Of a stretch of DNA of 56,145 bases, positions 11,887 through 50,764 are shown piece by piece. The notes beneath the pieces are model-generated. The model was given only the letters and a program-made list of their open reading frames with translations. It had not been told where the DNA came from and did no database searches. Source of the DNA: a phage. The first letter of the stretch is position 1, and each line of letters starts with the position of its first letter. Made by a program: the position numbers and the translations under genes. Location of the stretch: the sequence record PZ386950.1. The stretch is one strand, 5' to 3'.

Positions 11887-12255
11887 ATGGATCCGAACAT
11901 CAGAGTTGCCACAGACGAATTCATTCGTCGCGCCTGTAAAATTCATGGTGATCGTTACGACTACTCATTCAGCATTGTTGAAGATAGTTCCAGCACAGTG
12001 GTTATTATTGACCGTGAAACTAATACAGTGTTTTTCCAGGTTGTCGCTGAACATCTGGACGGTGTTGAACCAGTAACGACTGCTGTTGAACCGGTAACGA
12101 CTGCTGTTGAACCGGTAACGACTGTTGTTGAACCGGTCAAGAATCTTTCTGAGACATTCGGTAACGTTGCAAACAGCGTGTATCACCAGTGCAATTATTC
12201 ATCTGAAATGTTAGAATTTAGTCATGTTGAAACAATACGAGGACAGTCCCCGTGA
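11887..12255 (+). CDS. hypothetical protein with VEPVTTA tandem repeats
   Basis: track ORF starts at GTG inside the promoter -10; trimmed to in-frame ATG 11887 with RBS AAGAAGGG. Confidence 0.55.
   Translation: MDPNIRVATDEFIRRACKIHGDRYDYSFSIVEDSSSTVVIIDRETNTVFFQVVAEHLDGVEPVTTAVEPVTTAVEPVTTVVEPVKNLSETFGNVANSVYHQCNYSSEMLEFSHVETIRGQSP
12064..12137 (+). repeat. 21-bp coding tandem repeat (about 3.5 copies)
   Basis: gttgaaccRgtaacgactgct repeated, encoding VEPVTTA. Confidence 0.85.
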
Positions 12256-12662
12256 TAAATGTAAAAGTCAGCAAAACAGACCCCGGTTTACGAATGGTAT
12301 TCGGCTGGGGAACGATTTGTAAGAAAAGAAATTCTGAAAACGGTTTGTTAGAGGAGTACATCGACACTGACAACGAAATATTTCCCGAAGATGTTGTTCT
12401 AAAAGCATGGTTGGAATTCATGTCTGGCGACCAGCGTATTATGGACAATATGCACAATGAACAACCTGTAGGGAAAGTTGTGTTTGCGTTCCCGATGACT
12501 GAAGACATTGCGGAAAGTTTTGGGCTGGTTGATAAACTGGATCAGACAGGCATCATTGTTGGTACGTTGATAACTGATGACGAAGTTTTGAAAAAGTTTC
12601 AGACTGGTGAATATACGGGCTACAGCATCGGTGGTTCAGCTTATTATAAGGATGTGGAATAA
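12252..12662 (+). CDS. putative prohead protease (S78/U35-like catalytic region)
   Basis: MHNEQPVGKV and TGEYTGYSIGG resemble His and Ser motifs of HK97-type prohead proteases as I recall them; position before scaffold and capsid. Confidence 0.45.
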   Translation: MINVKVSKTDPGLRMVFGWGTICKKRNSENGLLEEYIDTDNEIFPEDVVLKAWLEFMSGDQRIMDNMHNEQPVGKVVFAFPMTEDIAESFGLVDKLDQTGIIVGTLITDDEVLKKFQTGEYTGYSIGGSAYYKDVE

Positions 12663-13921
12663 TGCGTACAGATGGTACTAATCATTTACGTCGCGCTAAA
12701 TCGATGAAGATCGGTTTTCTGTCCGGCGTGACAAAACCTGCTCACGAGGGAGCAAATGCTCTTGTTCTTAAATCACATTCAGAACCGCCTGCCGTTGCTC
12801 TTTTAAAGTCAACATTCAGTGCAGCACTGGCTGAAAAAGAACTTGAACAGAAAGTTCGCGATTTCCTCTCTAATTCGTGGATGTTGAACGATGCGCTTTA
12901 TGAAGCAGCAGAGGATATTGCAAAAGATGATTCTGTTACCGATAAACAAGCAGCATTGCGTGACGCGGTAAATGAATATATTATAACGTTGCAACAGGCC
13001 GCTGGTATTTCGATGAATAAAGCGAAAGGTGGTAAAACTGAAGACGGTGAAGTTTTCCCGGCATCTGATTATGCATATGTACCAGATCCAGAAAAACCTT
13101 CAACCTGGAAACTTCGTTTAACAGCTACCCCTGGCGGTGAACCTGATGCGCGTATTGTAGGCGCTGCACTTGCTGCATTAGGTCCGGGTTATCGCGGTAA
13201 CAAAGTTGAAATCCCTGAAGCCGATTTAGCAGGTGTGAAAAACAAAGTCCGATCCGCGTGGAAAAAATTACACCCGGACCAGGAAGTACCTCAAGTTTTA
13301 AAAACGGCAGAGGAAATCGAAATGTCCGAACTGGAAAAATACAAAGCCCTGGCTGAGATGAACGACGTCCATAAGGCGTATCATAATTCTCTGCCTGAAT
13401 CTGATCAGGAAGCATTCCGTAAAATGGATGTGACTGCTCGCGATGCCCTCGTGACGATGGCTAAACAGGCTGATGAATCGTTTACCACGATTGCGGGTCA
13501 GGTTGTTCAGAAATCTGTAGCTGGTCCGATGTATGACGTTCTGAAATCTCAGGACGAACAACTTCGCAAAGCACAGACTGAAGCGGCACTGGCGAAAGCT
13601 AAAGAAACCGTGAACACTGATTTCGCACATATTCCGGGTGAAATGGTACAGAAAACCCAGATGGTCATGACTCTTGAGCGTTTACCGGAAGCGGATCGTA
13701 ACTTCCTGGTTGAAAAGCTCAAACAGGCCGACGAACTCTGGAAAGCACGTAAAGAGCCAGCCGCGCCGAACGGCAGTGGTAAAGGTTCCAGTGCACTGGA
13801 AGACATGATCAACGAATGGCTGAAAGCAAATCCGGGTAAAACACGCACCCAGGCTATGCAGGCCATTTCTGCAACTAAAAAAGGTCAGGAAGCAATCGAA
13901 GCGATGCGAGGTGACGAATAA
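12662..13921 (+). CDS. scaffolding-like protein
   Basis: 419-aa acidic, helix-rich protein between protease-like and capsid genes. Confidence 0.55.
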   Translation: MRTDGTNHLRRAKSMKIGFLSGVTKPAHEGANALVLKSHSEPPAVALLKSTFSAALAEKELEQKVRDFLSNSWMLNDALYEAAEDIAKDDSVTDKQAALRDAVNEYIITLQQAAGISMNKAKGGKTEDGEVFPASDYAYVPDPEKPSTWKLRLTATPGGEPDARIVGAALAALGPGYRGNKVEIPEADLAGVKNKVRSAWKKLHPDQEVPQVLKTAEEIEMSELEKYKALAEMNDVHKAYHNSLPESDQEAFRKMDVTARDALVTMAKQADESFTTIAGQVVQKSVAGPMYDVLKSQDEQLRKAQTEAALAKAKETVNTDFAHIPGEMVQKTQMVMTLERLPEADRNFLVEKLKQADELWKARKEPAAPNGSGKGSSALEDMINEWLKANPGKTRTQAMQAISATKKGQEAIEAMRGDE

Positions 13922-14331
13922 TGGCTAAGAACAGCAAAATCTACTGGAACTATGAGCGCCCGACCCGTGCCGTTGCATCCGTGGCTATTTCGGCAGGTAT
14001 TGGTCTTGTTCTGGATACCAGTTTAGGTGACACTAACCAATGTGTACCTAAATACAAACTCCCAACGGCTGGCGGTCGTATTGACGGTGTAGCTGTTGAT
14101 GATGCCACTGCTGGTGTATTCTTCGACCTGGTAAACGAAAAAGAAAAATTCGTACCAGTAAAAGCATCTGCAGCGTTCGGTACAGGTGTCGAACTTGCTG
14201 TTGGTGCTGACGGACGATTCCAGACCGCTACTACTGATCAACTGGTTGTGGCTATTTCTCAAACTGGTGCCACTGCTGAAAACCAGGTAGTTACCGCATT
14301 ACTTATTGCACCGTATTCTAAAGGAGCATAA
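13921..14331 (+). CDS. capsid-associated protein (possible decoration protein)
   Basis: 136-aa ORF immediately upstream of major capsid gene. Confidence 0.45.
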   Translation: MAKNSKIYWNYERPTRAVASVAISAGIGLVLDTSLGDTNQCVPKYKLPTAGGRIDGVAVDDATAGVFFDLVNEKEKFVPVKASAAFGTGVELAVGADGRFQTATTDQLVVAISQTGATAENQVVTALLIAPYSKGA

Positions 14332-14334
14332 CCG

Positions 14335-15354
14335 ATGAGTTACAAACAGAATTTTCGCGACGTTGGCGCACCAGATACATTCCTGTCTAACTTTTCTGTA
14401 AGTTACTGGCAGGATACATCACTGTTTGTCGGTACTCGTTATTTCCCGGTAGTTCCTGTTAATCAGGCTGCTGGTAAGTTTCTGACTTACCCGAAAGGTT
14501 ATTTCGGTCGTCCGGTTAACTCCAAACGTGCCGAAGATGGTGTTGCTAACACTATTGGTTACAAAACCAAAAACCAGGGTTACACCGTTGATGACGATGC
14601 GATCCGTATCTTCATTTCTGACAAAAAACGTGCAAACGTTCAGAACGGTCAGCAACTGGATATGGAAGCGTCTGCAGTAACCACAGATGCGTTACTGATC
14701 AACAAAGAAGTGGATTTTGCTGAAAAATTCCTGACCGCTGGTAAATGGGGTCTTGATTTCCAGGGCAAAGACGCGTCTCCGTCCACGGGCGAATTCCTGA
14801 AATGGTCTAATGCGAATGCCGATCCGATTGGTGATATCCTGTCACGTCGTGTTGCGTTCTCTCTGGCATCCGGTGGTCGTCGCTGGAATAAAGCACTGAT
14901 GACGCTGGACGTGTATGACGCACTGACCCGTAGTCCGGCTGTTATTGACCGCATTAATGGTGGTTCTACCACTCAGAATCCGGGAATCGTGACTAAACAG
15001 GCACTGGCTGCACTGCTGGAAGTTGACGAACTGGAAATCATGCAGTCCGTGGTCAACATGGCTGCTGATGGCGTTGAAGACGGTGATGGCAATCCGATGT
15101 CAGACTTCCAGTTTGCTAAAACTGGTGTGCTGATGCTCAACTATGTTGAACCGACTGTTGGTAACATGAAACCTGTTGCTGCTGCGGGCTTCGTGTGGAA
15201 CGAGTTCATCGATCTGGGTGTTAACAACGGACCGTCTATCCGCACCTATCCGGGTGTTGAAGGTCGCCGTGGTAATTTCGTTGAAGCGGAATTTGCCATT
15301 GATGTTCAGATGGTTGCACCTGACCTGGGCGTTCTATTCTACGACGCGGTTTAA
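14335..15354 (+). CDS. major capsid protein
   Basis: 339-aa ORF with strong codon usage, followed by a terminator; position after scaffold. Confidence 0.7.
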   Translation: MSYKQNFRDVGAPDTFLSNFSVSYWQDTSLFVGTRYFPVVPVNQAAGKFLTYPKGYFGRPVNSKRAEDGVANTIGYKTKNQGYTVDDDAIRIFISDKKRANVQNGQQLDMEASAVTTDALLINKEVDFAEKFLTAGKWGLDFQGKDASPSTGEFLKWSNANADPIGDILSRRVAFSLASGGRRWNKALMTLDVYDALTRSPAVIDRINGGSTTQNPGIVTKQALAALLEVDELEIMQSVVNMAADGVEDGDGNPMSDFQFAKTGVLMLNYVEPTVGNMKPVAAAGFVWNEFIDLGVNNGPSIRTYPGVEGRRGNFVEAEFAIDVQMVAPDLGVLFYDAV

Positions 15355-15373
15355 TAACAACTGTGGTATCATT

Positions 15374-15402
15374 AAGGGGTGGCTTATGCTGCCCCTTTTT
15401 TC
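15374..15402 (+). terminator. rho-independent terminator after capsid gene
   Basis: GC-rich imperfect stem aagggg...cccctt followed by ttttt. Confidence 0.5.
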
Positions 15403-15416
15403 ATGAGGTTAAAATC

Positions 15417-15770
15417 ATGCGTAATTCATATGACCCGTCACTGAAATATGTTTTCACCCGTCCGATGCTGTGGAACGGTAAACAGATGTCCGCTGGCGAT
15501 AAAGTATCAACATCAAAAGCTACCCCGGCTGTTTTAAATGCCCTTGTGCGTATGCGCCACATTGAACCAGCTACTGCGACCGTTGAAGAACCAGTGACTA
15601 TAGCAAACGAAGAATCGGCATCAACCACATCTGCTGAAATCCGACGTGATGCGCCAAAAACCTATAACGTTTATGTTATGGGTATGCCGATGAATTCAGA
15701 ATCGTTTAGTAGTAAAAGTGCCGCTGCTGAATGGTGTGAATCTCAAGGCTTGACATATAACTATTCTTGA
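15417..15770 (+). CDS. hypothetical protein
   Basis: ATG 15417 with RBS GAGG; 117 aa. Confidence 0.5.
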   Translation: MRNSYDPSLKYVFTRPMLWNGKQMSAGDKVSTSKATPAVLNALVRMRHIEPATATVEEPVTIANEESASTTSAEIRRDAPKTYNVYVMGMPMNSESFSSKSAAAEWCESQGLTYNYS

Positions 15771-15996: not shown

Positions 15997-16010
15997 ATAA
16001 GGAGGTGATC
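15997..16010 (+). promoter_or_regulatory. extended Shine-Dalgarno-like 14-mer complementary to 16S rRNA 3' end
   Basis: TAAGGAGGTGATCC is the exact reverse complement of GGATCACCTCCTTA. Confidence 0.5.
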
Positions 16011-16210: not shown

Positions 16211-16249
16211 CGTGCTAATATAACGAAAACATTTCTCACAGGTGATCAC

Positions 16250-33379: not shown

Positions 33380-35236
33380 TTACCGAAGTGGTGCAACGAG
33401 TTTTTCAGCTTCTTTGATGTAAAAATCATAATTGAGTGTTGCCCGGTTAAAACGTTTCATGTCGTTACACTCAGTGGTCAACCAACCTTTACACACTGAC
33501 ATGCGGCGTTCAGGCGCATCAGGGTTCAGTTTCAGTGATTTTGCCAGCGGTGGCATGACTTTTGTTAATGGTGCACCATCTGTGCTGACATAATAACGGG
33601 TAATGTTCTGAACCTGTTTGTCACCCCATAGTAATTTGCTATTACGCGGTACTTTCGTCACCAACATAAAATCGTGAATGTCTTCGTGTGATGTTATAAA
33701 ATCACGAATGTCTTTATTGTGTACCAGTGCTGCTTCAGCCGCTTTTGCAACAACCTGCATACTGTGGTTTTGATGCCAACCCAGATCAACACTGTGGCAA
33801 TAAGCACCTTTACGTTTAACCTTCTTACCACCTTCATAAACAGCGATGTAGTTATTTACATCGCGGATAAACATCACGTCATAAATCGCTTCTTCAAGCT
33901 GGAGTCTGGTTAATTTTTCCCACGCGTGACGAACCTGTTCTACTTGTTCGGTAAACACTCGTGGCACGTAAACCGTAAGACCATCTGTGTTAGCCTGGAT
34001 CATGGACAAACCAGGGATTTTCAGAAGTTCTTCAGCCAACATGCACAAAAGTAACTGTCCATTAATCGTAATAGCCATTGTATAAGCAGGATCGTAGAAC
34101 GGGCTGTATACGTTATTACTGTCGCCATACACACCGTTTAACGCCAGTTTTAACATTGCATTTTCTGGTGTACCTTTCGGGTAACTGGAACGCATGTCAT
34201 AAACATTTTTATAAATGGTGCAAAATTGTTTTCCCAAATGTGCAGGGTAAAGTTCATTACTAATCGCAAGGTTTGGATAAAAACTGGCAACGTCCAGATC
34301 GATGATCACATAATTTTCAGTGGACCTGATAGTTTGAGATTCAATAGACCCGTGGATACCACCCGTACCAAAATCAAACGAGAACCCGTTAATGTCTGCG
34401 CTTAAATCAGTAAACACACCTTTTGTTTCAGTGATGACCTGTTGACGTAACCAGTTAAGAACACGATTAAATTCAGGCTGTTCAAAACGAACATAAGGGA
34501 AAATCACACTGTTCAATGCGATTGATGGTCTGTGCGTCTGCCGTGGTTTTCTGCTACCCGGTTCGAAACATTGAATACCTGATTTTTTAAGTTCCATGAT
34601 GAAATAGTCTTTACCGATTTTCGTGTCGTTATGGTTCATGAAATTACGACCGTATTTAGCAGAAAGTTCACGACGAAAATCGATCAGCTTTTTACTGTGT
34701 TTATAAAACATCAAAGTCGCTTTTAAATCGTGTATCAGATATTGACGAAGCGTATCAATTTGAGAATCGGTTAAATAAGTCCCTGGGGTAAACGGAAGGT
34801 CTTCAATGTTTTCCATTCTCATGTTGAACTCAAGTGTTTTCAGACTTGTTCGTTTTGCCTGGTTGTCGAAATGATGAATTTTATACAAATCAAGTTGGGG
34901 AACTATCCAGTCTTTTTCCCACACCATATGAGCAAAACGATTTTCATCACCAGCGTTAATTATCGAATCACCTTTTTTGTAAATGTCTGCGTTGGTGATA
35001 TACATGATGTTGTTCAAAATAGAATGCTGAACAGGATAGTCGTAACCTAGATTGTTATAACCAACTTCTTCAGCACGATGTTCACGCAAATATTCTGTGA
35101 ACAGGTAAAAAGCCTGACGATCGTCGCGACGATGTGAAATCTCAAAAATATAAGGTGTTTCAGTTAATGCGTGAATAGCACCGAACAGGAAAACATTAGG
35201 ATAATTTTCAATATCGTGAATGTAAGCATCTGACAT
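33380..35236 (-). CDS. family B DNA polymerase (compact, with 3'-5' exonuclease motifs)
   Basis: Exo I HDIEN, Exo II YNNLGYDYP, Exo III YLIHD; polymerase motif A DLDVASFYPN, motif B KLALNGVYG, motif C ANTDG. Confidence 0.75.
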   Translation of the reverse strand: MSDAYIHDIENYPNVFLFGAIHALTETPYIFEISHRRDDRQAFYLFTEYLREHRAEEVGYNNLGYDYPVQHSILNNIMYITNADIYKKGDSIINAGDENRFAHMVWEKDWIVPQLDLYKIHHFDNQAKRTSLKTLEFNMRMENIEDLPFTPGTYLTDSQIDTLRQYLIHDLKATLMFYKHSKKLIDFRRELSAKYGRNFMNHNDTKIGKDYFIMELKKSGIQCFEPGSRKPRQTHRPSIALNSVIFPYVRFEQPEFNRVLNWLRQQVITETKGVFTDLSADINGFSFDFGTGGIHGSIESQTIRSTENYVIIDLDVASFYPNLAISNELYPAHLGKQFCTIYKNVYDMRSSYPKGTPENAMLKLALNGVYGDSNNVYSPFYDPAYTMAITINGQLLLCMLAEELLKIPGLSMIQANTDGLTVYVPRVFTEQVEQVRHAWEKLTRLQLEEAIYDVMFIRDVNNYIAVYEGGKKVKRKGAYCHSVDLGWHQNHSMQVVAKAAEAALVHNKDIRDFITSHEDIHDFMLVTKVPRNSKLLWGDKQVQNITRYYVSTDGAPLTKVMPPLAKSLKLNPDAPERRMSVCKGWLTTECNDMKRFNRATLNYDFYIKEAEKLVAPLR

Positions 35237-35316: not shown

Positions 35317-36300
35317 TCAGTAACCGTTACCGTTGAGAAAATTCGGGGCCGGGGTGGTCATTACCATATAACCGTTAGCGATCAGTTGTTCATCATTCCA
35401 ACCTTGCGCAATAAACTGTTCGTAAGTAGCACCACCTGCTTTTTCAGTCATTACCTTCACAGGCGTTGCTACAGGTGCTGCCGCTGGTGTAGGCGTTGCT
35501 ACAGGTGCTGCCGCTGCTACAGGCGCTGCTACAGGTGCTGCCGCTGGTGTAGGCGCTGCTACAGGTGCTGCCGCTGGTGTAGGCGCTGCTACAGGTGCTG
35601 CCGCTGGTGTAGGCGCTGCTACAGGTGCTGCCGCTGGTGTAGGCGCTGCTACAGGTGCTGCCGCTGGTGTAGGCGCTGCTACAGGTGCTGCCGCTGGTGT
35701 TACGCCGATCGGACGTGCACCTTCAGGCATTGCAGGAGCAGCACCGAACACAGATGCAGGAGCCGGACCAGAAATAATTTCTTCACCTGCATAAAGCAAT
35801 TGCGCCATTTCCATGTTGATATACACACCGGCCTGGTTACCTGTACGACCGTTTGCAACAGATGATCCGCTGATACGGTAGTAATAACCTTTTTTCGCCA
35901 GATTTTTATCAATAACTGGCTGGTACGCTGCGTTATAAACCGGACACGCGTCAATAGCCACGTTGCGTGAGAAACCAATTACCCAGTGACCAGCATAACC
36001 AGTTTTACTCGCATGTTTCGGATCGTCACCGTTAATAATTTTCCATGCGAAAGTGGGTTGTTGTGGTTCGCCGTTCACATAGTGTGAGTTAGCCGCTCGC
36101 ATGATGGCCTGGAACACCGCACCCAGTTCACCTTGTTCTTCCCACCAGTTCGCCGCTGTTTTAGGAAACGCCAGACCAACCCACCAGTTATGTTTTTCAG
36201 GTGCTAACGGTTTATTTTCGTGGTCATGGGTGTTGATATCGAAAAAAGAACCGCCAACCAGACGACCAACCGGAGTTACAAAAGATTCTTTCTGTGCCAT
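35317..36300 (-). CDS. putative ssDNA-binding protein (DUF2815/gp2.5-like) with P/A-rich repeat linker
   Basis: position between DUF2800 nuclease and polymerase genes; strong RBS AAGAAGG; long PTPAAAPVAA repeats; C-terminal conserved module. Confidence 0.45.
   Translation of the reverse strand: MAQKESFVTPVGRLVGGSFFDINTHDHENKPLAPEKHNWWVGLAFPKTAANWWEEQGELGAVFQAIMRAANSHYVNGEPQQPTFAWKIINGDDPKHASKTGYAGHWVIGFSRNVAIDACPVYNAAYQPVIDKNLAKKGYYYRISGSSVANGRTGNQAGVYINMEMAQLLYAGEEIISGPAPASVFGAAPAMPEGARPIGVTPAAAPVAAPTPAAAPVAAPTPAAAPVAAPTPAAAPVAAPTPAAAPVAAPTPAAAPVAAPVAAAAPVATPTPAAAPVATPVKVMTEKAGGATYEQFIAQGWNDEQLIANGYMVMTTPAPNFLNGNGY
35461..35700 (-). repeat. 30-bp coding tandem repeat (about 8 copies)
   Basis: aggcgYtgctacaggtgctgccgctggtgt repeated nearly perfectly. 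Confidence 0.9.
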
Positions 36301-36315: not shown

Positions 36316-37461
36316 TTAAAGTGGACGTGCGCCAGTCGGCATCGTCACGGGTTTATTAAAAACAGATTCTGCCAGTGTGCTGTGACCTTTACGCGGGTCA
36401 CTGTCAGGTACTAAAACTGGCTGACCTTCTGGTTTTGTCGTACACATGTCAACAAGTGCCGGAGGCAGTGATTTTTCCAGTGTTGACAATGGTTTTAATT
36501 TACGTTCGTACAATGTTTCAGGGTTTACACCAAACATTGGTGCAGCACCGATCAGTTTTCCTTCGTCCGTAAGCTGACGTCGGGTTTGTTTTGTTGCAAG
36601 TTTAAAACCCGGTAAAGCCTTACCCATGCGAACAAAATGTAACCCCTGAGTATGTAACGCTGTTTTTGCTTCAGAAGAACGCGTATACAGTTCTTCAAGA
36701 AGTGCCAGACGACGCGCTACTTCTTCTGGTGTAAGTGATGGTGGTGCGTCAAGAACAGTAGCCAATTCTAAAACCCTCTCATACATTGCCGGACACATAC
36801 CACGCGCCGGACAGTAATGACAATGACTACCAACATTTAACGGTGCGTCTGGTTTATGTGCTTCGTTAAACCCGTGTTTAAATCGTTCAGCCCATTCCAT
36901 CAATGTTGCCCGGTTAAACTCCCATCGTCTTACAGGTCCGAGTGGGTGATAAGCCCGTGGCTGAACAATTGTGAACACAACGCGCTTAACAGTGTCGATG
37001 CAACGTTGGTCCAGTGCATAATAGACCCCCTGTGAGTTATCAACTGCGTCAACTGCAACATGACCGTATTTATAATCCCATACATAAAGCGTATCAGTAT
37101 TAAAGTCATACCAGCGATAATCACAGGTTCCGTACTGACCGGGTAACAACCAGTCAATGTGAATGCGAACTTCTGAAAACAGCGGATCAAGTTTCGCACC
37201 AACTGAAAGAACATCTGCTATAAAGTCATCCGCGTAAATGTGCATGTCTTCAGTAACCTGAACACCGTTAGGAGCAATACACGGCATTAATGGCGGTTTA
37301 CCTTTAATCTTCTGTTCTAACACCCAGTGCCCGGCTGTACCTTCTTCAGCACTGGGTGATGATGGTTCTACATAATCAATCCGCTGTGACAGTTGAACGC
37401 TACCAGGACAAGCTAACCAACGTTTTGATCCACTGGCACTAAAGGTAGCGTGACTTGTCAT
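36316..37461 (-). CDS. PD-(D/E)xK nuclease, DUF2800 / Cas4-like
   Basis: N-terminal FSASGSKRWLACPG and C-terminal Cys cluster CHYCPARGMCPA. Confidence 0.7.
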   Translation of the reverse strand: MTSHATFSASGSKRWLACPGSVQLSQRIDYVEPSSPSAEEGTAGHWVLEQKIKGKPPLMPCIAPNGVQVTEDMHIYADDFIADVLSVGAKLDPLFSEVRIHIDWLLPGQYGTCDYRWYDFNTDTLYVWDYKYGHVAVDAVDNSQGVYYALDQRCIDTVKRVVFTIVQPRAYHPLGPVRRWEFNRATLMEWAERFKHGFNEAHKPDAPLNVGSHCHYCPARGMCPAMYERVLELATVLDAPPSLTPEEVARRLALLEELYTRSSEAKTALHTQGLHFVRMGKALPGFKLATKQTRRQLTDEGKLIGAAPMFGVNPETLYERKLKPLSTLEKSLPPALVDMCTTKPEGQPVLVPDSDPRKGHSTLAESVFNKPVTMPTGARPL

Positions 37462-38231
37462 CAGAATGTCCCACCCATTTGTTTAACAGATTCAGCCTGA
37501 CCAACAATGTTTTCAGCATCAGCCGGGGCCGCGTTAATGCGTTCAATCAGTTCGATGATAGATTTCAGTTTTACCGGGTCGTCAATCTGCATCACGTTCT
37601 GAGTTTCATACAGCCCCATGATTCGCTGACTTAATGGCGCAGCACGGTCACCCGTAATTTGTCCAAACATCTGCATCAGTGCTGACTGAAGAACCTGTGT
37701 GTTATAAACTTTAGCCGGATCCGTGGTTACAGGTTGCTCGACAGGCGCGACTGGTGCAGCCGGTGCTGCTGGTACAACTGGAGCTACCGGAGCGGCAGGA
37801 ACCGCTGGAGCAGGATCAACAGGTGCTACATAACCCGGTGCAAGTTCTGCAGGTCCGGTATAACGCCCTGCTTCAACTGCTTCAGCGATAAGTTCACGTT
37901 TAACACCGTCAACAAACGCTTCATCCAGTTTTTTCTTCTGACGCCACAGACCGTCACCTTTGTTCAGGGATTTACTGTCAGTGTGGATACGCGGATCATG
38001 ACGCAAACCCCATTTGTCGAACTCTTCAGTGCTGGTTTCGTTATCGTCAACATCTTCAGTTGGTGCAGATACAACAGGCAGTGATTCAGCAACGACAGTT
38101 ACCGTTTCTTTAGTGATACCATCACCCTGAGCAGTCATGAGTGGTGCAGCACCAGTCGCAATAGCATTTGCCAGATTGTTGATCGCAGTTTCCAGACCCG
38201 GAGCAGTTACAAGTAATTTAACTTCGAACAT
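37461..38231 (-). CDS. hypothetical P/A-rich protein, first gene of replication operon
   Basis: 256 aa with PAAPVAPV-type low-complexity linker. Confidence 0.5.
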   Translation of the reverse strand: MFEVKLLVTAPGLETAINNLANAIATGAAPLMTAQGDGITKETVTVVAESLPVVSAPTEDVDDNETSTEEFDKWGLRHDPRIHTDSKSLNKGDGLWRQKKKLDEAFVDGVKRELIAEAVEAGRYTGPAELAPGYVAPVDPAPAVPAAPVAPVVPAAPAAPVAPVEQPVTTDPAKVYNTQVLQSALMQMFGQITGDRAAPLSQRIMGLYETQNVMQIDDPVKLKSIIELIERINAAPADAENIVGQAESVKQMGGTF

Positions 38232-38401: not shown

Positions 38402-40063
38402 ATGAAAGCTCGTTATTATCAGACTGAAGCTATCAATAACGTATGTCAGGCATGGTCAAGCGGTGCTGACGACGTGATTCTTGTGCTTCCCACGGGGGCA
38501 GGAAAAACGTTCTGTATGTCTGAACTGGTAAAAACAAGAGACGGTGTAAAAGTCATCCAGGCGCACCGTAAAGAACTGGTTAGTCAAATCGCAATGGCTG
38601 TTGCTCGCCAGGGGTTAGCACACAGATTTATAGCGCAAAAAGATACTGTTAAGTTTGCAACTAATCAGCAGATGAAAACGCTTGGTTACAGTACCTATTC
38701 CCCCGGTGCTGACATCGTTATTACCAGTTCACAAACGTTAAGAACAAAACAGTACGAACGATGGTACAACGACGTGTCTCTTGTATTCAGCGACGAAGCG
38801 CATCACCTGGTGCGTGGCACACAGTGGGGAGACTGCCGGGAAAAATTCCCTAACGCTAAAGGTCTGGGTGTTACAGCTACACCGATCCGTGCTGACGGTA
38901 AAGGCTTGGGTCGTCATGCGTCAGGTTACGCAGATCAGATGATCATCGGTCCATCAATGCGTGAGTTAATCAGCCAACAACACCTGGCTGATTATCGCCT
39001 GATCATGGCTGAAACAGACCTGGAATTAACTGCAGAAATGATTTCCCATACTACGGGTGATTACAAACCCTCTGCGTTAAAAAAAGCGATGGAAGATTCA
39101 AACATCGTTGGTGATACCGTCAGTACGTGGAAAACGTATGCAGATGGTTTACTCACCGTTGTGTTTACGTGTGATGTGGATTCTGCTGAAGCACTTGCAA
39201 AAGAATTTCGCGATGCTGGTATTCCTGCAGAGGCGATCAGTTCACGAAACAGTAATCAGGAACGAGCGGATATTCTGGAACGTTTTGAACGACGTAAAAC
39301 ACTCGTGCTATGTAACAACGATTTATTCGGTGAAGGATACGACTGTCCGGCAATGGAATGTGCTGTAATGGACCGTCCAACAGAATCTTACTCTTTGTTT
39401 GTACAACAAATGGGTCGACCATTGCGTTTCAAACCGGGTAAAAAAGCACTGATTATTGATAAAGTCGGTAATGTTCGTCGATTTCTGGCCCGTGGTTTTC
39501 CACTTCCTGATCAGCATTACAACTGGTCTTTAGATGACCGTGACCGTCGTTCATCTAACAGCAGTGGGAACAGTAATACAACATGTACAAACAAGGGTGA
39601 TCCTGATAACGGTATTCCACCGTGTCTGAAGCCTTATCCGTCTGGTCTTCCGTGCTGCCCGTATTGTGGTCATGTTCCTGAAAAAGCCGAACGTTCAGGC
39701 CCGGATCGTGTAGAAGGTAATTTACGTGAACTGACACCTGAAGAACTGGAAGAATTACGCCGGGCAGTTGTGATAATCGACCGTGACCCTGTTGCGGTAA
39801 AAGAACAAATGTTAAACGCTGGTGCACCCCCTGTTGTAGCTTACAGTGCAATGAAAAACATTCAGGCAATGAACGATGCACAGCGTAAGTTACGCAGCAT
39901 GATCACCACATGGGCAGGTATTCAGCGTGATAAAGGTATACCCGTTGATGACGCTTACAAGATGTTTTACAGGGTGTTTGGTGTTGATGTACTTAGTGCA
40001 CAGGGCTTACGTACTCGTGAAGCTAACGAACTCGCCGCAAGGGTTGCAAGTTCATTAATCTGA
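38402..40063 (+). CDS. superfamily II DNA helicase
   Basis: Walker A LPTGAGKT, DEAH box FSDEAHH, helicase C-terminal region. Confidence 0.8.
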   Translation: MKARYYQTEAINNVCQAWSSGADDVILVLPTGAGKTFCMSELVKTRDGVKVIQAHRKELVSQIAMAVARQGLAHRFIAQKDTVKFATNQQMKTLGYSTYSPGADIVITSSQTLRTKQYERWYNDVSLVFSDEAHHLVRGTQWGDCREKFPNAKGLGVTATPIRADGKGLGRHASGYADQMIIGPSMRELISQQHLADYRLIMAETDLELTAEMISHTTGDYKPSALKKAMEDSNIVGDTVSTWKTYADGLLTVVFTCDVDSAEALAKEFRDAGIPAEAISSRNSNQERADILERFERRKTLVLCNNDLFGEGYDCPAMECAVMDRPTESYSLFVQQMGRPLRFKPGKKALIIDKVGNVRRFLARGFPLPDQHYNWSLDDRDRRSSNSSGNSNTTCTNKGDPDNGIPPCLKPYPSGLPCCPYCGHVPEKAERSGPDRVEGNLRELTPEELEELRRAVVIIDRDPVAVKEQMLNAGAPPVVAYSAMKNIQAMNDAQRKLRSMITTWAGIQRDKGIPVDDAYKMFYRVFGVDVLSAQGLRTREANELAARVASSLI

Positions 40064-40104
40064 TGGTAATCTGCATAGAAATATTTTAAACGTAAGGAAC
40101 TGTA

Positions 40105-40871: not shown

Positions 40872-43226
40872 ATGAAAGGGTTACTGAACCGTAAACAGTG
40901 GGTCATGTGGCGGCTTGAGACAGTCGCCGATCGTCCAAAACCAACGAAAGTACCATACAGTCCGGTACACGGTTACAAAGCCAGTACCACTAATCCTAAC
41001 GACTGGTCTGACTATCACACCGCGTTAGGTATGGCGCAAATGTACGGCATGTCTGGTGTTGGTTTTGTATTCACAGAAAACGACCCTTATTTCTTTATTG
41101 ATGTCGATAACTGTCTGGTAGATCAGGCAACAGCTACGTGGTCACCACTGGCGCATGAATTCGTAAACCGTTTTCCAAATGCTTACACTGAAGTCAGTCA
41201 GTCAGGAACAGGTTTGCATATAATCTGTGCTTATACCAGCATACCGGAAGGTTTTAACAGTCTGAACGACCAGAAAACCGGGCTGGAAATGTACTGGCGT
41301 GATCGTTTCGTCGCGATGACGCTCACGGGTAATGGTGATGTTGATATTGATTATACCCAGGGTATTCATGATTCTATTGCCCGGTATGGTCGCATCCGTT
41401 CAGACCGTTCCGCACGCTGGACAACAGCACCCTGTGATGACTGGTCAGGCCCGGCAGACGATGATGAACTGATTAAAATGGCGTTAAATTCGTCCAGTGC
41501 TGCTTCAGTATTTGGTAATAAAGCGTCATTTGCGGATCTGTGGAATGCAAACGTTGAACGCCTGTCTGTGTCATATCCCAGCGACCAGGGAAAAGACTAC
41601 AATGCATCTGCCGCTGATGCTGCCCTGTGCTCACACCTTGCTTTCTGGACCGGGAAAGATTGCGAACGTATTGAACGTCTATTTAACCGTTCCGGGCTGG
41701 TTCGTGGTAAATGGACAGACCGTCAGGATTACCGTGAGAATACGATTCTGGGCGCTGTGGAACGTTGCGATACTGTTTATCGTAGTCAACCGACGCTGAC
41801 ACCAGAACTGATGAAAGCAGTCACACCAGCGCCTACCATCGTTCCTAACGGTGGAACACCTGCGTACATGAGTGTGAAACCCGGTGAAGGTGCATATGGT
41901 TCAAACCACACGGTTAACGCATCCACTTTCGTTAATAACTATTATCCGAACAACACATTGATTTTCGTCCAGCAACAACCATACCGGTTCAACGGTCGCG
42001 TGTGGGAACGTGTCAGTGAAGATGAACTGAAACATCAAATTTCTATGGCAATGCTCGCCAGCGAACCAAAAGCTGACGTGATTAATGGTACGTACAAGGT
42101 TTTGTCGTATTTATTCACACGGGCTGATCGTGAGCTTGGAACATGGCCCGGCGTTGATGTATCACACTATATTGTTTGTCAGAACGGGATACTGGATGTA
42201 CACACGGGTAAATGTGATGCACATAACCCTGATTTCTTTACGACCAGTATTTTACCGTATAGCTACGATCCATTTGCTCGTGCACCAGCGTTTGAACAGT
42301 TTTTAAATACAACTCTGGAAGGTGATCAGGAACGTATTGCATTGTTGCAGGAATGGCTGGGTTACATGCTTGTCAACTCGTATGACTATCAGAAAGCGAT
42401 GCTGTTGATTGGTGCACCACGTTCCGGTAAAGGTACGATTGGTCGCATCATTCAGGCACTGGTAGGTGATGAAGCGTATGCAGGGATCACACTGGAGGGT
42501 TTAGCAAGTGATGCGGTACTTGAAACTGTGCTGGATAAATCTGTGCTATTTATCGGTGATGCTCACAGTGTGTCCGGGCCTGATCGCAACCGAATTCTGG
42601 ACCGTTTCAAATCTATTACAGGTTGTGATGCGATTCCGGTTAATCGTAAATATAAAGGTGCATGGAACGGTCGTTTACCGGGACGTATGACACTGGCTGC
42701 TAACAACATACCTGCATTTGCTGATGATTCCGGTGCAATGGCTAACCGTTTGCTGATCCTACCATTCAACATTTCGTTCCTGGGTCGTGAAGATACCACT
42801 CTGGAAGCACGACTGATGAAAGAACTACCGGGGATCTGTAACTGGGCGATTGAAGGTTTACAACGGTTACGTGCAAACGGACGGTTTACTGAACCAAAAG
42901 CAAGTCTGGAAGAACGTCAGGAAATTATGGATCAACAATCACCACTTAGAAGTTTTATCAGAGATTGTTGCGAATTGGTATCTGATGGTGAGGTGCACAC
43001 TGAAGAACTCTATGGTCGTTATCGTCTCTGGAAAACACAGGAAGGTGGTCCAGCAATGACTAAAACTGCATTTAGTCGGGCGTTTAAATCCACCCTTCGT
43101 GGTAAAGTGAAAAAAGACGTTGTTAATATAAATAACGTTCGACTAAACGGTTTCAGGGGTATTCGTCTTCTCCCTTTTCAGTCAACAGCTAATGTAGTGC
43201 CTTTCCCACCTGCGAGTAACGGTTAG
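40872..43226 (+). CDS. primase-helicase (primase-polymerase N-terminal domain plus P4/D5-type SF3 helicase)
   Basis: N-terminal SQSGTGLHIIC, C-terminal Walker A GAPRSGKGT. Confidence 0.8.
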   Translation: MKGLLNRKQWVMWRLETVADRPKPTKVPYSPVHGYKASTTNPNDWSDYHTALGMAQMYGMSGVGFVFTENDPYFFIDVDNCLVDQATATWSPLAHEFVNRFPNAYTEVSQSGTGLHIICAYTSIPEGFNSLNDQKTGLEMYWRDRFVAMTLTGNGDVDIDYTQGIHDSIARYGRIRSDRSARWTTAPCDDWSGPADDDELIKMALNSSSAASVFGNKASFADLWNANVERLSVSYPSDQGKDYNASAADAALCSHLAFWTGKDCERIERLFNRSGLVRGKWTDRQDYRENTILGAVERCDTVYRSQPTLTPELMKAVTPAPTIVPNGGTPAYMSVKPGEGAYGSNHTVNASTFVNNYYPNNTLIFVQQQPYRFNGRVWERVSEDELKHQISMAMLASEPKADVINGTYKVLSYLFTRADRELGTWPGVDVSHYIVCQNGILDVHTGKCDAHNPDFFTTSILPYSYDPFARAPAFEQFLNTTLEGDQERIALLQEWLGYMLVNSYDYQKAMLLIGAPRSGKGTIGRIIQALVGDEAYAGITLEGLASDAVLETVLDKSVLFIGDAHSVSGPDRNRILDRFKSITGCDAIPVNRKYKGAWNGRLPGRMTLAANNIPAFADDSGAMANRLLILPFNISFLGREDTTLEARLMKELPGICNWAIEGLQRLRANGRFTEPKASLEERQEIMDQQSPLRSFIRDCCELVSDGEVHTEELYGRYRLWKTQEGGPAMTKTAFSRAFKSTLRGKVKKDVVNINNVRLNGFRGIRLLPFQSTANVVPFPPASNG

Positions 43227-46662: not shown

Positions 46663-47003
46663 TTATTAACAAACAACAACTGCGTGACGATATTAAAAAG
46701 CGCAAAAATTTACCTGAACCGGGTATTAGTGTTGAAGAAACTTTTCAACGTATACAAATCATCGCTGAAACACAAAAAAGTTTCACACCAGAAATCGTTG
46801 AAGCGCTGTTGGACGAAATTAAATTTAAAGATGTTCGAATCGCTGAACTTACAGATGCTCTTATGCAAATGGTTAATGCATATAAGCGTATTATTCACGA
46901 TGGTTACAATCGTATTGTTGAATATGGGGGGGGTGATTGTGATTCACCGGAAGAAATGATTTCAAGAGAACCGGATATCAACAAAGCGCTAAAAGCATTG
47001 TAA
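46659..47003 (+). CDS. hypothetical protein
   Basis: 114-aa ORF, ATGA overlap. Confidence 0.5.
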   Translation: MIINKQQLRDDIKKRKNLPEPGISVEETFQRIQIIAETQKSFTPEIVEALLDEIKFKDVRIAELTDALMQMVNAYKRIIHDGYNRIVEYGGGDCDSPEEMISREPDINKALKAL

Positions 47004-47017
47004 GAAGGAGACTAGTT

Positions 47018-47221
47018 ATGAAAAACCGCAAGGCAAAGATTCTGTTAGTTCGTAGAAACGGTCCCGGCGTCTGGCAGTGGGTAAGACTCAGCAACCGACG
47101 AATGGGGTTGATGAAATATTACGGGATGATGGATTGTGGTTTTTGCAAAAAGCCCAGCGCGGCGCAAAACCGCTGGAAAAACCACCGGCACCCTAAAGGA
47201 GACAGAATTTATGTCAGATAA
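47018..47221 (+). CDS. hypothetical small protein
   Basis: RBS AAGGAG 8 nt upstream. Confidence 0.5.
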   Translation: MKNRKAKILLVRRNGPGVWQWVRLSNRRMGLMKYYGMMDCGFCKKPSAAQNRWKNHRHPKGDRIYVR

Positions 47222-47372
47222 CTTAACACCAATTTACGGTACGTTGACCTGTCGTTCTAAATTTAAACCGTTGACAAAAGAAGAAGAACGTCAGTGTAAG
47301 TTCAATAACAGTTTTCCCAGCGTTAATGAAAATCGTTGGATTGCTAAACTAACCGGGAGTAAAAAGAAATGA
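47211..47372 (+). CDS. hypothetical small protein
   Basis: ATG 47211 with RBS AAGGAG. Confidence 0.4.
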   Translation: MSDNLTPIYGTLTCRSKFKPLTKEEERQCKFNNSFPSVNENRWIAKLTGSKKK

Positions 47373-47632
47373 CTAAAATCTACGTTACAAAATATGCGTT
47401 AACAACTGGTATTTTCAGTGTAGATGCTAAAATAAAATCAGATGGTACAAGTGCAACTTTCGACGACAAAAGAAACATGCGACAGTTTGTTTATGGTAAA
47501 GATTTTTGGTTGACACCGGAAGAGGCTTTTATTGATTGCGAGCGCCGTCGAATAAACAAATTAAAATCTCTGGAGAAACAGAAACAAAAAGTTGAAAGTT
47601 TAAACTTTCAACTTATTAAGGAACATTTATGA
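47369..47632 (+). CDS. hypothetical protein
   Basis: ATGA overlap chain. Confidence 0.45.
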   Translation: MTKIYVTKYALTTGIFSVDAKIKSDGTSATFDDKRNMRQFVYGKDFWLTPEEAFIDCERRRINKLKSLEKQKQKVESLNFQLIKEHL

Positions 47633-47853
47633 CTATCAGACTGATGAATCCAACCGTTGCCCGTGATATTAAACCGGGTGACAAGATTGAAGTATTTAAC
47701 GAATGGTACTGGGTGCGCTATATCAATTACCACGGGTCACAGATTACGCTTCGTTTACAACCGGAAGATGAACCGCTATCACCATTTTGTGAAAACGACC
47801 GTGTTGTGGTGACAGTACCAGAAGATCTAATGATTGATGTCGAGGTGCGTTAA
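47629..47853 (+). CDS. hypothetical protein
   Basis: ATGA overlap chain. Confidence 0.45.
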   Translation: MTIRLMNPTVARDIKPGDKIEVFNEWYWVRYINYHGSQITLRLQPEDEPLSPFCENDRVVVTVPEDLMIDVEVR

Positions 47854-48105
47854 ATGACTGTGTACGAAATGGAATATTTTCTTCGTGGTAAATGTGTTCC
47901 GGGTGATTTGAAAGTTAACGAAACAAACGCTGAATATCTGGTGCGTAAATTAACACTTGTGGATCAACAACTGGAAGCACTGGATAAACTAGCAGGTCAA
48001 TTTCTACAATTATCAATGGAACGTGGCGGTCGTGTTTCAACCGCGTATGCTGAGTGTGCTGATTTGTTGGCTAGAACTGTTCGCGACATAAGGAAAAACA
48101 CATGA
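47854..48105 (+). CDS. hypothetical protein
   Basis: TAAATG junction. Confidence 0.45.
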   Translation: MTVYEMEYFLRGKCVPGDLKVNETNAEYLVRKLTLVDQQLEALDKLAGQFLQLSMERGGRVSTAYAECADLLARTVRDIRKNT

Positions 48106-48308
48106 ATACTAACGATTATTTATATCTTGTATTAGTTCCAATTGCTGAGGTATTCAGATCACGTTTTCCGAAGGGTTCTGCGCCTTTTAGTGCTATTCGT
48201 AACAATAAAACCTGTCGCGTTAAATTTACAAGCAAACGGCTTGAAAAAGAATGGCAGGAATTTTGTAAAAATAACGAATTGAAAAATGATCCAAAACTGG
48301 AATACTAA
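48102..48308 (+). CDS. hypothetical protein
   Basis: RBS AAGGAAA. Confidence 0.45.
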   Translation: MNTNDYLYLVLVPIAEVFRSRFPKGSAPFSAIRNNKTCRVKFTSKRLEKEWQEFCKNNELKNDPKLEY

Positions 48309-48537
48309 CAGGTTCCCTCGTAACGGTTTGAAGTGGTCCGCACGAGATCTGGTGTTATTAAAAATTAATGCGGGGAAGATCAGTGCGGGCGAAATAGCGT
48401 ATTACCTTCGCCGGGACGTTGAAGCGTCACGTCTCGGTATATCACTGGTAACCAATAAATGTAAACGTGGTCATGCGCGAGTTTACCAAAAAGGTAGATG
48501 GCGCTGTCCTGAGTGTAGAAAATTAAAAGGGTATTAA
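48286..48537 (+). CDS. hypothetical protein with C-terminal zinc ribbon
   Basis: CKRGH ... CPECRK; start uncertain. Confidence 0.4.
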   Translation: MIQNWNTNRFPRNGLKWSARDLVLLKINAGKISAGEIAYYLRRDVEASRLGISLVTNKCKRGHARVYQKGRWRCPECRKLKGY

Positions 48538-48539
48538 AT

Positions 48540-48773
48540 ATGAAAATTAAAAATATGGCTGCAAGTGGTCTGTCAGGCCGTATCTTTTACGGTACGATGG
48601 AAACAAAAGACGGTGGTCAGTCTGGTAAATGGTTAGCAGGAAAGCAAGACGTTACTGATATGGCGATCCGCGCCGTTGCTGAACATTGTCATCTGACAGG
48701 AAACGAATATTCATTTACTATTAACGACGGTCGTGTGATTACACTGACAGTAACAGAGGTACAACCATCATGA
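48540..48773 (+). CDS. hypothetical protein
   Basis: 77-aa ORF. Confidence 0.45.
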   Translation: MKIKNMAASGLSGRIFYGTMETKDGGQSGKWLAGKQDVTDMAIRAVAEHCHLTGNEYSFTINDGRVITLTVTEVQPS

Positions 48774-49339
48774 CACCTGAACAATTTGCAAAAGCAGCAC
48801 ACGGTGATCAACTGCGTAAATATACCAACGACCCATATGTTAACCACTGCCGGAACGTTGCTGAACTGGTTAAACGCTATGGTGGTACGCCGGATATGGT
48901 TACTGCTGCCTGGCTGCATGACGTCGTTGAAGATACGCCCGTGACCGTGGGTGATGTGTGTTCGCAGTTCGGTGAGACTGTGGCACGTTATGTTGATCAG
49001 CTTACTGATGTGAGTCGTCCACACCACGGCAACCGTGTTAAGCGTAAAGCACGGGACATCGACCATTTATCACGGGCTGAACCTGTGGTGAAAACTATAA
49101 AACTGTGTGATCTGCTGGATAACACCTCTTCAATTGTCCGACACGATCCGAAGTTTGCTGTAACTTACCTGGCTGAAAAACAACTCATGCTTGCTCATCT
49201 GTCAGACGCAAGCAACCAGGAGTTATACGCGCTTGTTGAGCGTGAATTGTTTAAAGCCAAATACAAACTAACGAACGTCCAGTTGACCGCGTTTGACAAG
49301 CACTACGACGCACTGGTTAAAGCGATGGGGAATCTGTGA
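48770..49339 (+). CDS. HD-domain phosphohydrolase, SpoT/Mesh1-like (putative (p)ppGpp hydrolase)
   Basis: HGDQLRKYTNDPYVNH ... AAWLHDVVEDT matches the RelA/SpoT hydrolase-domain signature. Confidence 0.65.
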   Translation: MTPEQFAKAAHGDQLRKYTNDPYVNHCRNVAELVKRYGGTPDMVTAAWLHDVVEDTPVTVGDVCSQFGETVARYVDQLTDVSRPHHGNRVKRKARDIDHLSRAEPVVKTIKLCDLLDNTSSIVRHDPKFAVTYLAEKQLMLAHLSDASNQELYALVERELFKAKYKLTNVQLTAFDKHYDALVKAMGNL

Positions 49340-49341
49340 TT

Positions 49342-49512
49342 ATGAAAGAAATAGAACAACTGGTTGAACGTTTACGTGCTGCTGGTCATCAACTTACTGT
49401 TGAAAATAACTGGATAGTGGTTAACCCACCATGTTCTTTATCTGATACGCTTTTAATTCAGAAATTGAATAAAGGTGAAAAACTGGCTAAGTATATTAAG
49501 GAAAATCCGTAA
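49342..49512 (+). CDS. hypothetical small protein (56 aa)
   Basis: ATG 49342, TAATG overlap downstream; not in track. Confidence 0.3.
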   Translation: MKEIEQLVERLRAAGHQLTVENNWIVVNPPCSLSDTLLIQKLNKGEKLAKYIKENP

Positions 49513-49652
49513 TGAAACTAAAAATTCCCGGTTACTGGTTCGCCGTAAGCTGGAACAGTTACAGTAAGTGGGGTTATTTCAAACTGTGGCATGACGGGCC
49601 GTACCGCGCGTTCTGGATCGGTCGTCTTTGTTTCGAATGGTGGTGGCGATGA
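49512..49652 (+). CDS. hypothetical small Trp-rich protein (46 aa)
   Basis: coupled by overlaps on both sides; not in track. Confidence 0.3.
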   Translation: MKLKIPGYWFAVSWNSYSKWGYFKLWHDGPYRAFWIGRLCFEWWWR

Positions 49653-49936
49653 CCATAAGACGTGTTGTGTGTGCGGCAAATAAATATGAGCTTAACGACG
49701 GTTCAACTAAAATTTTCACGGGTATTCGTCACTATTGTCCCGTTATGCGTCAGAATATGGAATTCTGGAAATTATCCATCAAACGTTCTACAGAAATACA
49801 AGGCTTTGTAGATCAGTATGGTGTTTTTATGGACCGTTTTGAAGCACTTCAGGTTGCAAAAGATGCCGGGCAACTGAATATTGCCAGACCAAAAACATCA
49901 CCTGAAGATCGGTTGTTTAGCGAGGACTTATACTAA
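49649..49936 (+). CDS. hypothetical protein
   Basis: trimmed to ATG 49649 in ATGA overlap. Confidence 0.45.
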   Translation: MTIRRVVCAANKYELNDGSTKIFTGIRHYCPVMRQNMEFWKLSIKRSTEIQGFVDQYGVFMDRFEALQVAKDAGQLNIARPKTSPEDRLFSEDLY

Positions 49937-49966
49937 CAAAAAGCGGGGATAATTACCCCGCTATCT

Positions 49967-50764
49967 TTATTGACCCATCATATCTTTATACATCATCAAA
50001 ACAATATCATCCGGCATATTGTCTACATCACAATGTGGGTTGTGTGATAACGCATACAGTCTGATTTTCTCCTTCAAATCGCTGACATCGACTACAGGTG
50101 CTTCCACTCGTGTTACAGGTGCTTCCACTCGTGTTACAGGTGGAAGCACTCGTGTTACAGGTGGTTCCACTCGTGCTACAGGTGCTTCCACTCGTGCTAC
50201 AGGTGCTTCACAAACCATCACATTAAACGGTGTACCGGTGCCTTCGTATTTTTCAAGCAAATCGACCATTACGTTTACACATTCCGGGATCCATCCCCGG
50301 CGCAAACCATTCTGAATCCAACTGTCAGTAATTGTGTGTTCGTTTAAATTCCTGCGTAGCACATATCTTGCACATTCAAAATTACCGCACATCGCCTCAA
50401 ACCGTGTCCACACGTCGTGACCGTGAACAGCTTCCAGGATCTGTGAATCAACGTATCTGACACGTTGCCAGTAGTTATTAGCAAAACGCCTGTGTGGTAA
50501 TTTCTGACGCAGTTCGGTAACCGGTATTGTGTGTTTAAGAACAATGTTTTCGTCAGAATGTTGTACTGACGAAGGTGACAGTGTGAAGTCAGTAATCTCT
50601 TCAAGAATAATACTGATCGTTTCATATTTAGGATGAAACCTACCGCTTAACCATTGGTTGTAACGACCAATGGTTACCTTAACACCTCGACGATTAAGGT
50701 ATTCAACAGCATTTTGTACCCCGCCTTTTAAATCTATCAATTCGTCTAAAAGGTTCTTTTTCAT
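49967..50764 (-). CDS. hypothetical protein with EAPVARV tandem repeats
   Basis: ATG 50764 with perfect RBS AAGGAGG; divergent from terS across the iteron region. Confidence 0.55.
   Translation of the reverse strand: MKKNLLDELIDLKGGVQNAVEYLNRRGVKVTIGRYNQWLSGRFHPKYETISIILEEITDFTLSPSSVQHSDENIVLKHTIPVTELRQKLPHRRFANNYWQRVRYVDSQILEAVHGHDVWTRFEAMCGNFECARYVLRRNLNEHTITDSWIQNGLRRGWIPECVNVMVDLLEKYEGTGTPFNVMVCEAPVARVEAPVARVEPPVTRVLPPVTRVEAPVTRVEAPVVDVSDLKEKIRLYALSHNPHCDVDNMPDDIVLMMYKDMMGQ
50092..50212 (-). repeat. 21-bp coding tandem repeat (about 6 copies)
   Basis: acaggtgcttccactcgtgtt repeated with point variants. Confidence 0.85.

Follow-up and report, generated by a model that had tools for sequence, protein, structure and literature searches.

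In-frame repeat arrays in predicted inter-domain spacers of a Sashavirus-like phage genome

In this study, we examined short repeat tracts in four genes, here called g1 to g4, of a phage sequence of 56,145 nt (record PZ386950.1; the whole stretch is referred to as the window), which is a complete Sashavirus-like (9NA-like) siphophage genome with the terminase large-subunit open reading frame (ORF) at its start. Very likely, the tracts in g1, g2 and g4 are in-frame coding minisatellites (variable-number tandem repeats, VNTRs) and the tract in g3 is a related low-complexity stretch, with all four serving as unstructured spacers between folded domains. The feature is real but ordinary, since the window holds new alleles of arrays for which the records of sister phages have annotations, and in-frame linker VNTRs are well known.

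The original prediction had listed four perfect tandem repeats. From a Tandem Repeats Finder (TRF) run on the window and a composition scan, the following tracts were obtained, with 100 dinucleotide-preserving shuffles of the window as control.

g1 array, 12063-12137, plus strand: 21 nt x 3.6 copies, 96% matches, TRF score 136; unit GTTGAACCGGTAACGACTGCT (VEPVTTA)
g2 array, 35461-35700, minus strand: 30 nt x 8.0 copies, 96% matches, TRF score 445; unit ACACCAGCGGCAGCACCTGTAGCAGCGCCT (TPAAAPVAAP)
g3 tract, 37707-37844, minus strand: Pro/Ala/Val-rich low complexity from the composition scan; TRF 27 nt x 1.9 copies, 76% matches, score 62
g4 array, 50093-50209, minus strand: 21 nt x 5.6 copies, 90% matches, TRF score 185; unit GAAGCACCTGTAGCACGAGTG (E[A/P]PV[A/T]RV)

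The top score over all shuffles was 71, which places the g1, g2 and g4 arrays far beyond chance. All three have unit lengths divisible by three and, according to the translations, lie inside ORFs. The g2 array is made up of six identical 30-nt units and two variant units, while in the g4 array of the window four variants of the unit are mixed as a mosaic. As a DNA tandem repeat the g3 tract was rejected, because its score lies inside the shuffle range and its codons are heterogeneous; it is therefore a low-complexity stretch and not a near-perfect DNA repeat. Three of the four predicted repeats thus hold, and for these the coordinates and peptides given earlier (VEPVTTA, PTPAAAPVAA and EAPVARV) agree with the TRF arrays and translations. 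The common description of the tracts as Pro/Ala/Val-rich fits g2 and g3 well, but is too narrow for g1 and g4, whose units also carry Glu, Thr and Arg. All four tracts hold a P-V dipeptide.

The genes that carry the tracts, and the parts into which the g2 product is divided, are as follows (aa, amino acids; pLDDT, predicted local distance difference test, the confidence measure of the AlphaFold (AF2) models).

g1, 11887-12255, plus strand: 122-aa accessory protein, from the ORF list and its translation
g2, 35317-36300, minus strand: Gp2.5-like/DUF2815-type single-stranded DNA (ssDNA)-binding (annealing) protein (SSB), 327 aa
g2 core, aa 1-195, 35716-36300, minus strand: pLDDT >90 (aa 1 to ~190)
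g2 linker, aa 196-279, 35464-35715, minus strand: pLDDT 52-62 and no secondary structure (aa ~200-280, covering the repeats)
g2 C-terminal module and tail, aa 280-327, 35320-35463, minus strand: strand-helix-helix-strand at aa 281-315, pLDDT 91-95
g3, 37461-38231, minus strand: 256-aa conserved protein, PHROG 27827
g4, 49967-50764, minus strand: 265-aa hypothetical protein, PHROG 25538

Copy-number variation between isolates, as had been predicted, is seen at all three true arrays, both among relatives and among metagenomic proteins, with near-identical flanks. Protein alignments were built from six genomes (the window, PDP46, Sasha, 536P12, BDX09P1 and AVIO78A), and in these every indel falls within the tracts. 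The g1 array, with 3.6 units in the window, has 2.6 in AVIO78A, one unit fewer, and the 345-nt tblastn spans of Bas82 and PJ16 point to the same shorter form. For the SSB, listing the units of the six aligned genomes gave arrays of about 1.5 to 9.5 units; across 9NA-like phages the linker ranges from 28 to 100 aa, with higher-order patterns and partial-unit indels, and the whole protein from 261 to 343 aa. The unit listing for g4 took in eight genomes and covers 2.4 to 13.4 units: 5.4 in the window, 5.4 in PDP46 (pure EAPVARV), 4.4 in AVIO78A (EPPVSRV), 3.4 in 536P12 (EPPVTRV), 2.4 each in BDX09P1 and Solent, 9.4 in Sergei and 13.4 in Sasha (EPPVARA). Among these, Solent, Sergei and Sasha (2.4, 9.4 and 13.4 units) show 0 mismatches over 555 + 129 = 684 nt of flanking g4 coding sequence, so that point substitutions build up far more slowly than the array changes. 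Homologues of g4 from metagenomes and isolate assemblies extend the series, their lengths differing by multiples of 7 aa and corresponding to 0.4 to 8 units, the shortest being homologue P0146, which retains just 'EPPV'. In the homologues from 9NA, SP-062 and Carvaje the array is absent and the middle and C-terminal domains are joined directly. Together with the near-loss in P0146, this indicates that the spacer is dispensable. At the fourth tract, in g3, the relatives differ by 9-nt indels only.

Within a genome the repeat units are homogenised, yet they are not the same from one genome to the next (EAPVARV, EPPVARA, EPPVTRV, EPPVSRV), which is the signature of concerted evolution and bears out the claim of recent expansion or contraction. 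At g4, the arrays of the relatives are pure or nearly so, unlike the mosaic of the window. Beyond-chance in-frame repeats that are polymorphic between conserved flanks, the features that define a coding VNTR, are thus found in g1, g2 and g4, while g3 lacks the repeat.

The third feature, an unstructured segment between folded domains, is predicted for the SSB and for g4, where segments of low pLDDT (52-62 and ~30) separate more confident domains; the earlier designation of all four tracts as linkers is in this way upheld for two of them, and for g1 and g3 it is suggested by alignment. The SSB model was computed with 77 homologues as input. Its assignment draws on a match to PHROG 7011 (E 2e-99), a weak Enc34_ssDNA-bd match in Pfam and a Foldseek search with the core, which retrieved the DUF2815 structures 4JG2 and 4KLK, T7 gp2.5 (1JE5) and Enc34 ORF6 (5ODJ) at E 7e-9 to 1e-7 and probability 1.00. 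By sequence and model g2 is a Gp2.5-like/DUF2815 SSB with a modified OB-fold (oligonucleotide/oligosaccharide-binding) core, for which ssDNA binding and annealing are predicted. That its repeat segment is a linker is well supported by alignment and model, in which it is predicted to be unstructured. In more than 100 SSB homologues the site that separates the core end ('...GPxAxxVFG') from the C-terminal module is rich in Pro/Ala in every case and differs in length. Other perfect repeats occupy it in homologues P0011 (17 aa x 4) and P0022 (QQQAPVT x 5) and in 9NA (PAPVAAPVAT x 7), and distant homologues carry a non-repetitive or otherwise repetitive Pro/Ala-rich linker at the equivalent position. 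Different repeats at one site across lineages indicate independent expansions at a single permissive site. When the SSB was searched against PDB sequences, the only matches were linkers, namely those of an E2 succinyltransferase, RAD23B and a PT-linker glycosidase.

In the g4 model, an HTH-like (helix-turn-helix) domain at aa 1-60 (pLDDT 78-93) is followed by a helical middle (62-75), the repeat spacer at aa ~177-224 and a two-helix C-terminus (~72). A Foldseek search with this model returned nothing significant and only weak HTH hints. The N-terminal 55 aa of g1 are similar to a module that occurs in homing-type endonucleases of phages, with aa 6-59 matching genes labelled 'endonuclease' or GIY-YIG by tblastn. 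In an alignment with 9NA, Carvaje and SP-062, the g3 tract lies between conserved blocks and varies most. From alignment and composition, the g1 repeat and the g3 tract would both be linkers.

We propose a model in which the arrays expand and contract through replication slippage, or through single-strand annealing or unequal recombination between units, perhaps with assistance from the SSB/annealing protein and the DUF2800 exonuclease that the phage itself encodes. Changes in length would be tolerated because the peptide acts as a flexible, extended tether, which in the SSB would join the ssDNA-binding OB-fold core to a small conserved C-terminal module, and such tolerated changes would pile up much faster than point substitutions. 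Several points weigh against this reading. Both the route of turnover and the selective neutrality of the length changes are things that we infer, and the linker character of the g1 and g3 tracts is read from alignments and composition. The g4 model is shallow, being built from 12 sequences with a mean pLDDT of 61. In addition, arrays that exceed a sequencing read, as the 240-nt SSB array with its 180 perfectly identical nucleotides may do, could be mis-assembled.

The C-terminal module of the SSB deserves separate description. A C-terminal tail that is long and acidic, of the gp2.5/Enc34 ORF6 type, was looked for in g2 and is not present; the linker carries a net charge of +1 and the C-terminal 48 aa one of -2, and the protein instead ends in a folded module of ~35 aa followed by a '...NGNGY' tail. 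The module (GATYEQFIAQGWNDEQLIANGY, 35320-35463, minus strand) has a paralogue in the window at 7728-7847 (plus strand), within an ORF at 7587-8222 whose C-terminal half is Pfam DUF6378. Its consensus is MTxKAxGATYEQFxAxGW(T/N)DExLxxxGYM, with a predicted strand-helix-helix-strand fold. Among 1.84 billion proteins, the C-terminal 48 aa of the SSB found 224 representative protein clusters at E<=1e-3. The module occurs in one to several copies per protein, mostly after Ala/Pro-rich sequence (A 24%, P 23% upstream), and in the extreme case with up to 13 stretches, by HMMER count, in one 2,644-aa protein. The cores to which it is attached appear to be of several different kinds, SSB-like or recombination-related, in addition to g3-like proteins. 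By phmmer, a Gp2.5-like core is present in 46 of 149 module proteins; judged by eye, the remaining cores include proteins with D(I/L)PF-tip ends, DUF669-like or zinc-finger-like ones, and some with the g3 motif 'WD.RIH...WKKRRG'. Searches of Pfam with 31 instances of the module gave no consistent family at E<=1 (stray matches in 1-2 of them), the copy in the window had no match at E<=10, and the module profile found none among PDB sequences. The module probably stands in for the acidic tail with which SSBs of the T7 gp2.5 type bind their partners. A more far-reaching interpretation, to which we give an outside chance, is that the SSB array serves as a hypervariable tether for a module, apparently undescribed, that has been shuffled together with Pro/Ala-rich linkers onto several seemingly different phage protein cores, and that the length set by the repeats is under selection to tune its reach to a replisome or DNA partner.

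More generally, linker length could be an adaptive, tunable trait kept by selection, acting on the reach of the SSB module, on the domain spacing of g4 or on escape from SSB-sensing defences. Repeat expansions do recur independently at one position of the SSB in different lineages, the Pro/Ala composition upstream of the module is kept in the 149 representative proteins, and the unit variants of g4 are non-synonymous and fixed array-wide. Moreover, a passage in PMC13402713 names phage SSBs as triggers of Retron-Eco8. Such array-wide fixation is, however, expected from concerted evolution alone, the lengths are broad and continuous (0.4-13.4 units in g4, 28-100 aa in the SSB linker), and g4 homologues of the 9NA type manage without any array, which makes adaptive tuning improbable. 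Far less credit can be given to the idea that the arrays act as DNA, as origin iterons in g4 or as protein binding sites, with the coding periodicity secondary. In the lambda O gene, tandem ~20-nt iterons lie in the inter-domain region of the gene for a protein with an N-terminal DNA-binding domain, and the layout of g4 is similar: its 21-nt period is near two helical turns, its N-terminus is HTH-like, and its units have the 12-mer GCACCTGTAGCA in common with those of g2 (p ~0.01). The features that define iterons nevertheless fail in g4, and an origin of the lambda O type was rejected. The units are not conserved, as 9NA, SP-062 and Carvaje lack the array although their records show the same genes for DNA polymerase, SSB, exonuclease and primase, P0146 is down to 0.4 unit and copy number spans a 30-fold range. 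They do not co-vary with the N-terminal domain, since the N-terminal 75 aa of g4 are divergent in BDX09P1 while the 21-nt unit is unchanged. An AT-rich unwinding region is missing near the array, where 60-nt windows reach at most 0.67 AT and the genome mean is 0.56. A cluster of seven 17-nt motifs that lies upstream of g4, described below, co-varies with the HTH-like domain instead and offers the better candidate sites.

The explanation we find hardest to credit is that assembly produced the tracts, or the copy numbers given for them, as artefacts. In its favour, proteins annotated 'DUF2815, partial' and 44-aa C-terminal fragments occur on contigs of 56-61 kb, contig SQYZ01000012.1 (55,932 nt) ends within the SSB array, and six identical 30-nt units (180 nt) surpass typical k-mer and read spans. 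The g1 and g4 arrays, by contrast, are below read size (75 and 117 nt), variant units such as LPPVTRV, which is also found in P0133, serve as unique anchors, and identical units at identical codons recur in dozens of independent assemblies and isolates. Pure artefact was therefore rejected as far as the existence of the tracts is concerned, with the exact copy number of the SSB array uncertain. A phase-variable simple-sequence contingency locus was considered too and does not fit, because every unit and every indel observed has a length divisible by three and lies within an ORF. With regard to assemblies, genomes of these phages are present nearly in full in Salmonella and E. coli isolate assemblies, each as one contig with its ends within the SSB repeat; the contig end was seen directly for one assembly (L016, SQYZ01000012.1) and deduced for P0159, P0162, P0170, P0177, P0185 and P0193 from truncated proteins on contigs of 53-61 kb. 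Phages of this group are often co-sequenced with bacterial isolates. Such contig ends indicate that short-read assemblies break at the array, and because they break or collapse at such arrays, the lengths that annotations give for the SSB and g4 are unreliable unless long reads are available.

Repeats at these sites have been recorded before. A 'direct tandem repeat region' is annotated in Sasha (KX987158) at 39904-40074 (gp63) and 52088-52369 (gp81), and in Sergei (KY002061) at 54960-55160 (gp91). These features lie in the orthologous SSB and g4 genes, with the same units and positions, so that the window holds different copy-number alleles of them. The two records leave the repeats uninterpreted, Sasha lacks the g1 array, and both have pure or nearly pure g4 arrays compared to the mosaic of the window. 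The annotations of PDP46 and AVIO78A contain no repeat feature, and the PDP46 paper does not mention the repeats. In a wider context, the amino-acid tandem repeats (aaTRs) of Borgs are near-perfect in-frame DNA repeats, fast-evolving, of local origin, enriched in Pro, Thr and Glu and intrinsically disordered (PMC9879509, Schoelmerich et al. 2023). Like them, the phage arrays are perfect or near-perfect DNA repeats with units divisible by three in ORFs of a mobile element, but Borgs have hundreds of such loci, enriched in extracellular and membrane proteins, compared to the three loci of this 56-kb phage, which belong to cytoplasmic proteins of replication or regulation. As for the SSB itself, T7 gp2.5, Enc34 ORF6 and E. 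coli SSB (with a disordered linker and an acidic tip) resemble g2 in having an unstructured C-terminal region behind an OB-fold core. In gp2.5 and Enc34 ORF6 this region is an acidic tail for partner contacts and self-regulation (PMC5686142), while the g2 linker is neutral, Pro/Ala-rich and a 30-nt VNTR, and leads into a folded module instead of an acidic tail. The linkers of E2 2-oxo-acid dehydrogenases, the Pro-rich spacer of TonB and the PT linkers of glycoside hydrolases have the same composition and a presumed tether role as here; this resemblance, which includes the SSB matches 7uol_D and 8zvk_A, is compositional and not one of homology. For practical use, the arrays are fast-evolving markers that separate otherwise identical Sashavirus/9NA-like isolates such as Solent, Sergei and Sasha. 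The 3- to 4-fold range of linker length tolerated by the SSB and the 0-13 spacer units of g4 also amount to a natural 'linker-scanning' series.

Gene order in the window is collinear with Sashavirus/Nonanavirus (9NA-like) siphophages. The nearest record is Escherichia phage PDP46 (~97% identity, with 86% of a 25-kb query covered), followed in closeness by Sasha, Sergei, Solent, 536P12, BDX09P1, AVIO78A, Bas82 and PJ16, while 9NA and several Klebsiella phages are at ~79-81% identity. A search of complete E. coli genomes and PLSDB plasmids for copies of long-read grade gave no match. The g1 gene is located immediately upstream of the gene for the XkdF-like prohead protease. Full-length g1 homologues were found by tblastn in only 6 phage records, all from E. 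coli-infecting relatives, with the PDP46 homologue labelled 'DUF723 family'; by record annotation and comparison the gene is missing from Sasha. Against Pfam, nothing came near threshold for g1, and searches of g1, g3 and g4 against Pfam, PHROG and PDB gave no informative family. The g3 gene is the first of a leftward block that continues with the DUF2800 exonuclease, the SSB and the DNA polymerase, and its product carries the motif 'WG.RHDPRIH..SK....G.WRQKKK'. Of the replication genes, the exonuclease lies at 36316-37461, the DNA polymerase at 33380-35236, the helicase at 38402-40063 and the primase at 40872-43226. Orthologues of g3 are labelled 'putative TonB receptor protein' in Solent (MH586730) and 'helicase' in PDP46 (PQ783785), AVIO78A (MZ726797) and PJ16 (OQ955832), and several product names near g3 seem to be one gene out of register in AVIO78A and PDP46. 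These names and the shifted neighbours look like annotation errors, the TonB label in Solent being probably due to the Pro-rich tract.

Two details of the g4 array were noted in addition. In its fourth unit (50135-50155), CTT (Leu) replaces GAA, and in the change from GTGGAAGCAC to GTGCTTCCAC the middle 4 nt of a quasi-palindrome have been inverted, as a template-switch mutation would give. The resulting LPPVTRV unit is also present in the metagenomic protein P0133, so that a sequencing error is not the cause. The 12-mer common to the SSB and g4 arrays (A-P-V-A; 35467-35688 and 50174-50206) occurs nowhere else in the window, and the p value given above refers to the same codon choice arising by chance under the codon usage of the window. 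Common origin, gene conversion or coincidence could account for this sharing.

In the intergenic region at 50771-51257, which separates g4 from a TerS-like ORF at 51258-52010, there are seven same-orientation motifs of ~17 nt, (T)AGTGCAYGTTGTGYATTA. Copies of the 17-nt motif (TAGTGCAYGTTGTGYA) lie at 50856, 50887, 50911, 50943, 50964, 51117 and 51253 and together span 50856-51270. The cluster is kept in six relatives, and in BDX09P1, which has a divergent g4 HTH-like domain, other repeats stand in its place. Judged from these patterns, the motifs would be better candidate binding sites than the 21-nt array; the patterns also suggest that g4 may be a site-specific DNA-binding regulator, or else that the 17-nt sites could serve packaging or replication. 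A dispersed repeat of ~80 nt, at 11647-11725 and 51007-51085 (GTCATGTTTA..CCAACCC.TCTCTATCTTATTCTTTTTATTATCTTTTTATAGA.AACATAGAAAACATAGATA), is common to two large divergent intergenic regions, one upstream of g1 and the other upstream of g4 and the TerS-like ORF. It includes the ATAGAAAAC 9-mers that were found by TRF, and may represent a shared promoter or regulatory element.

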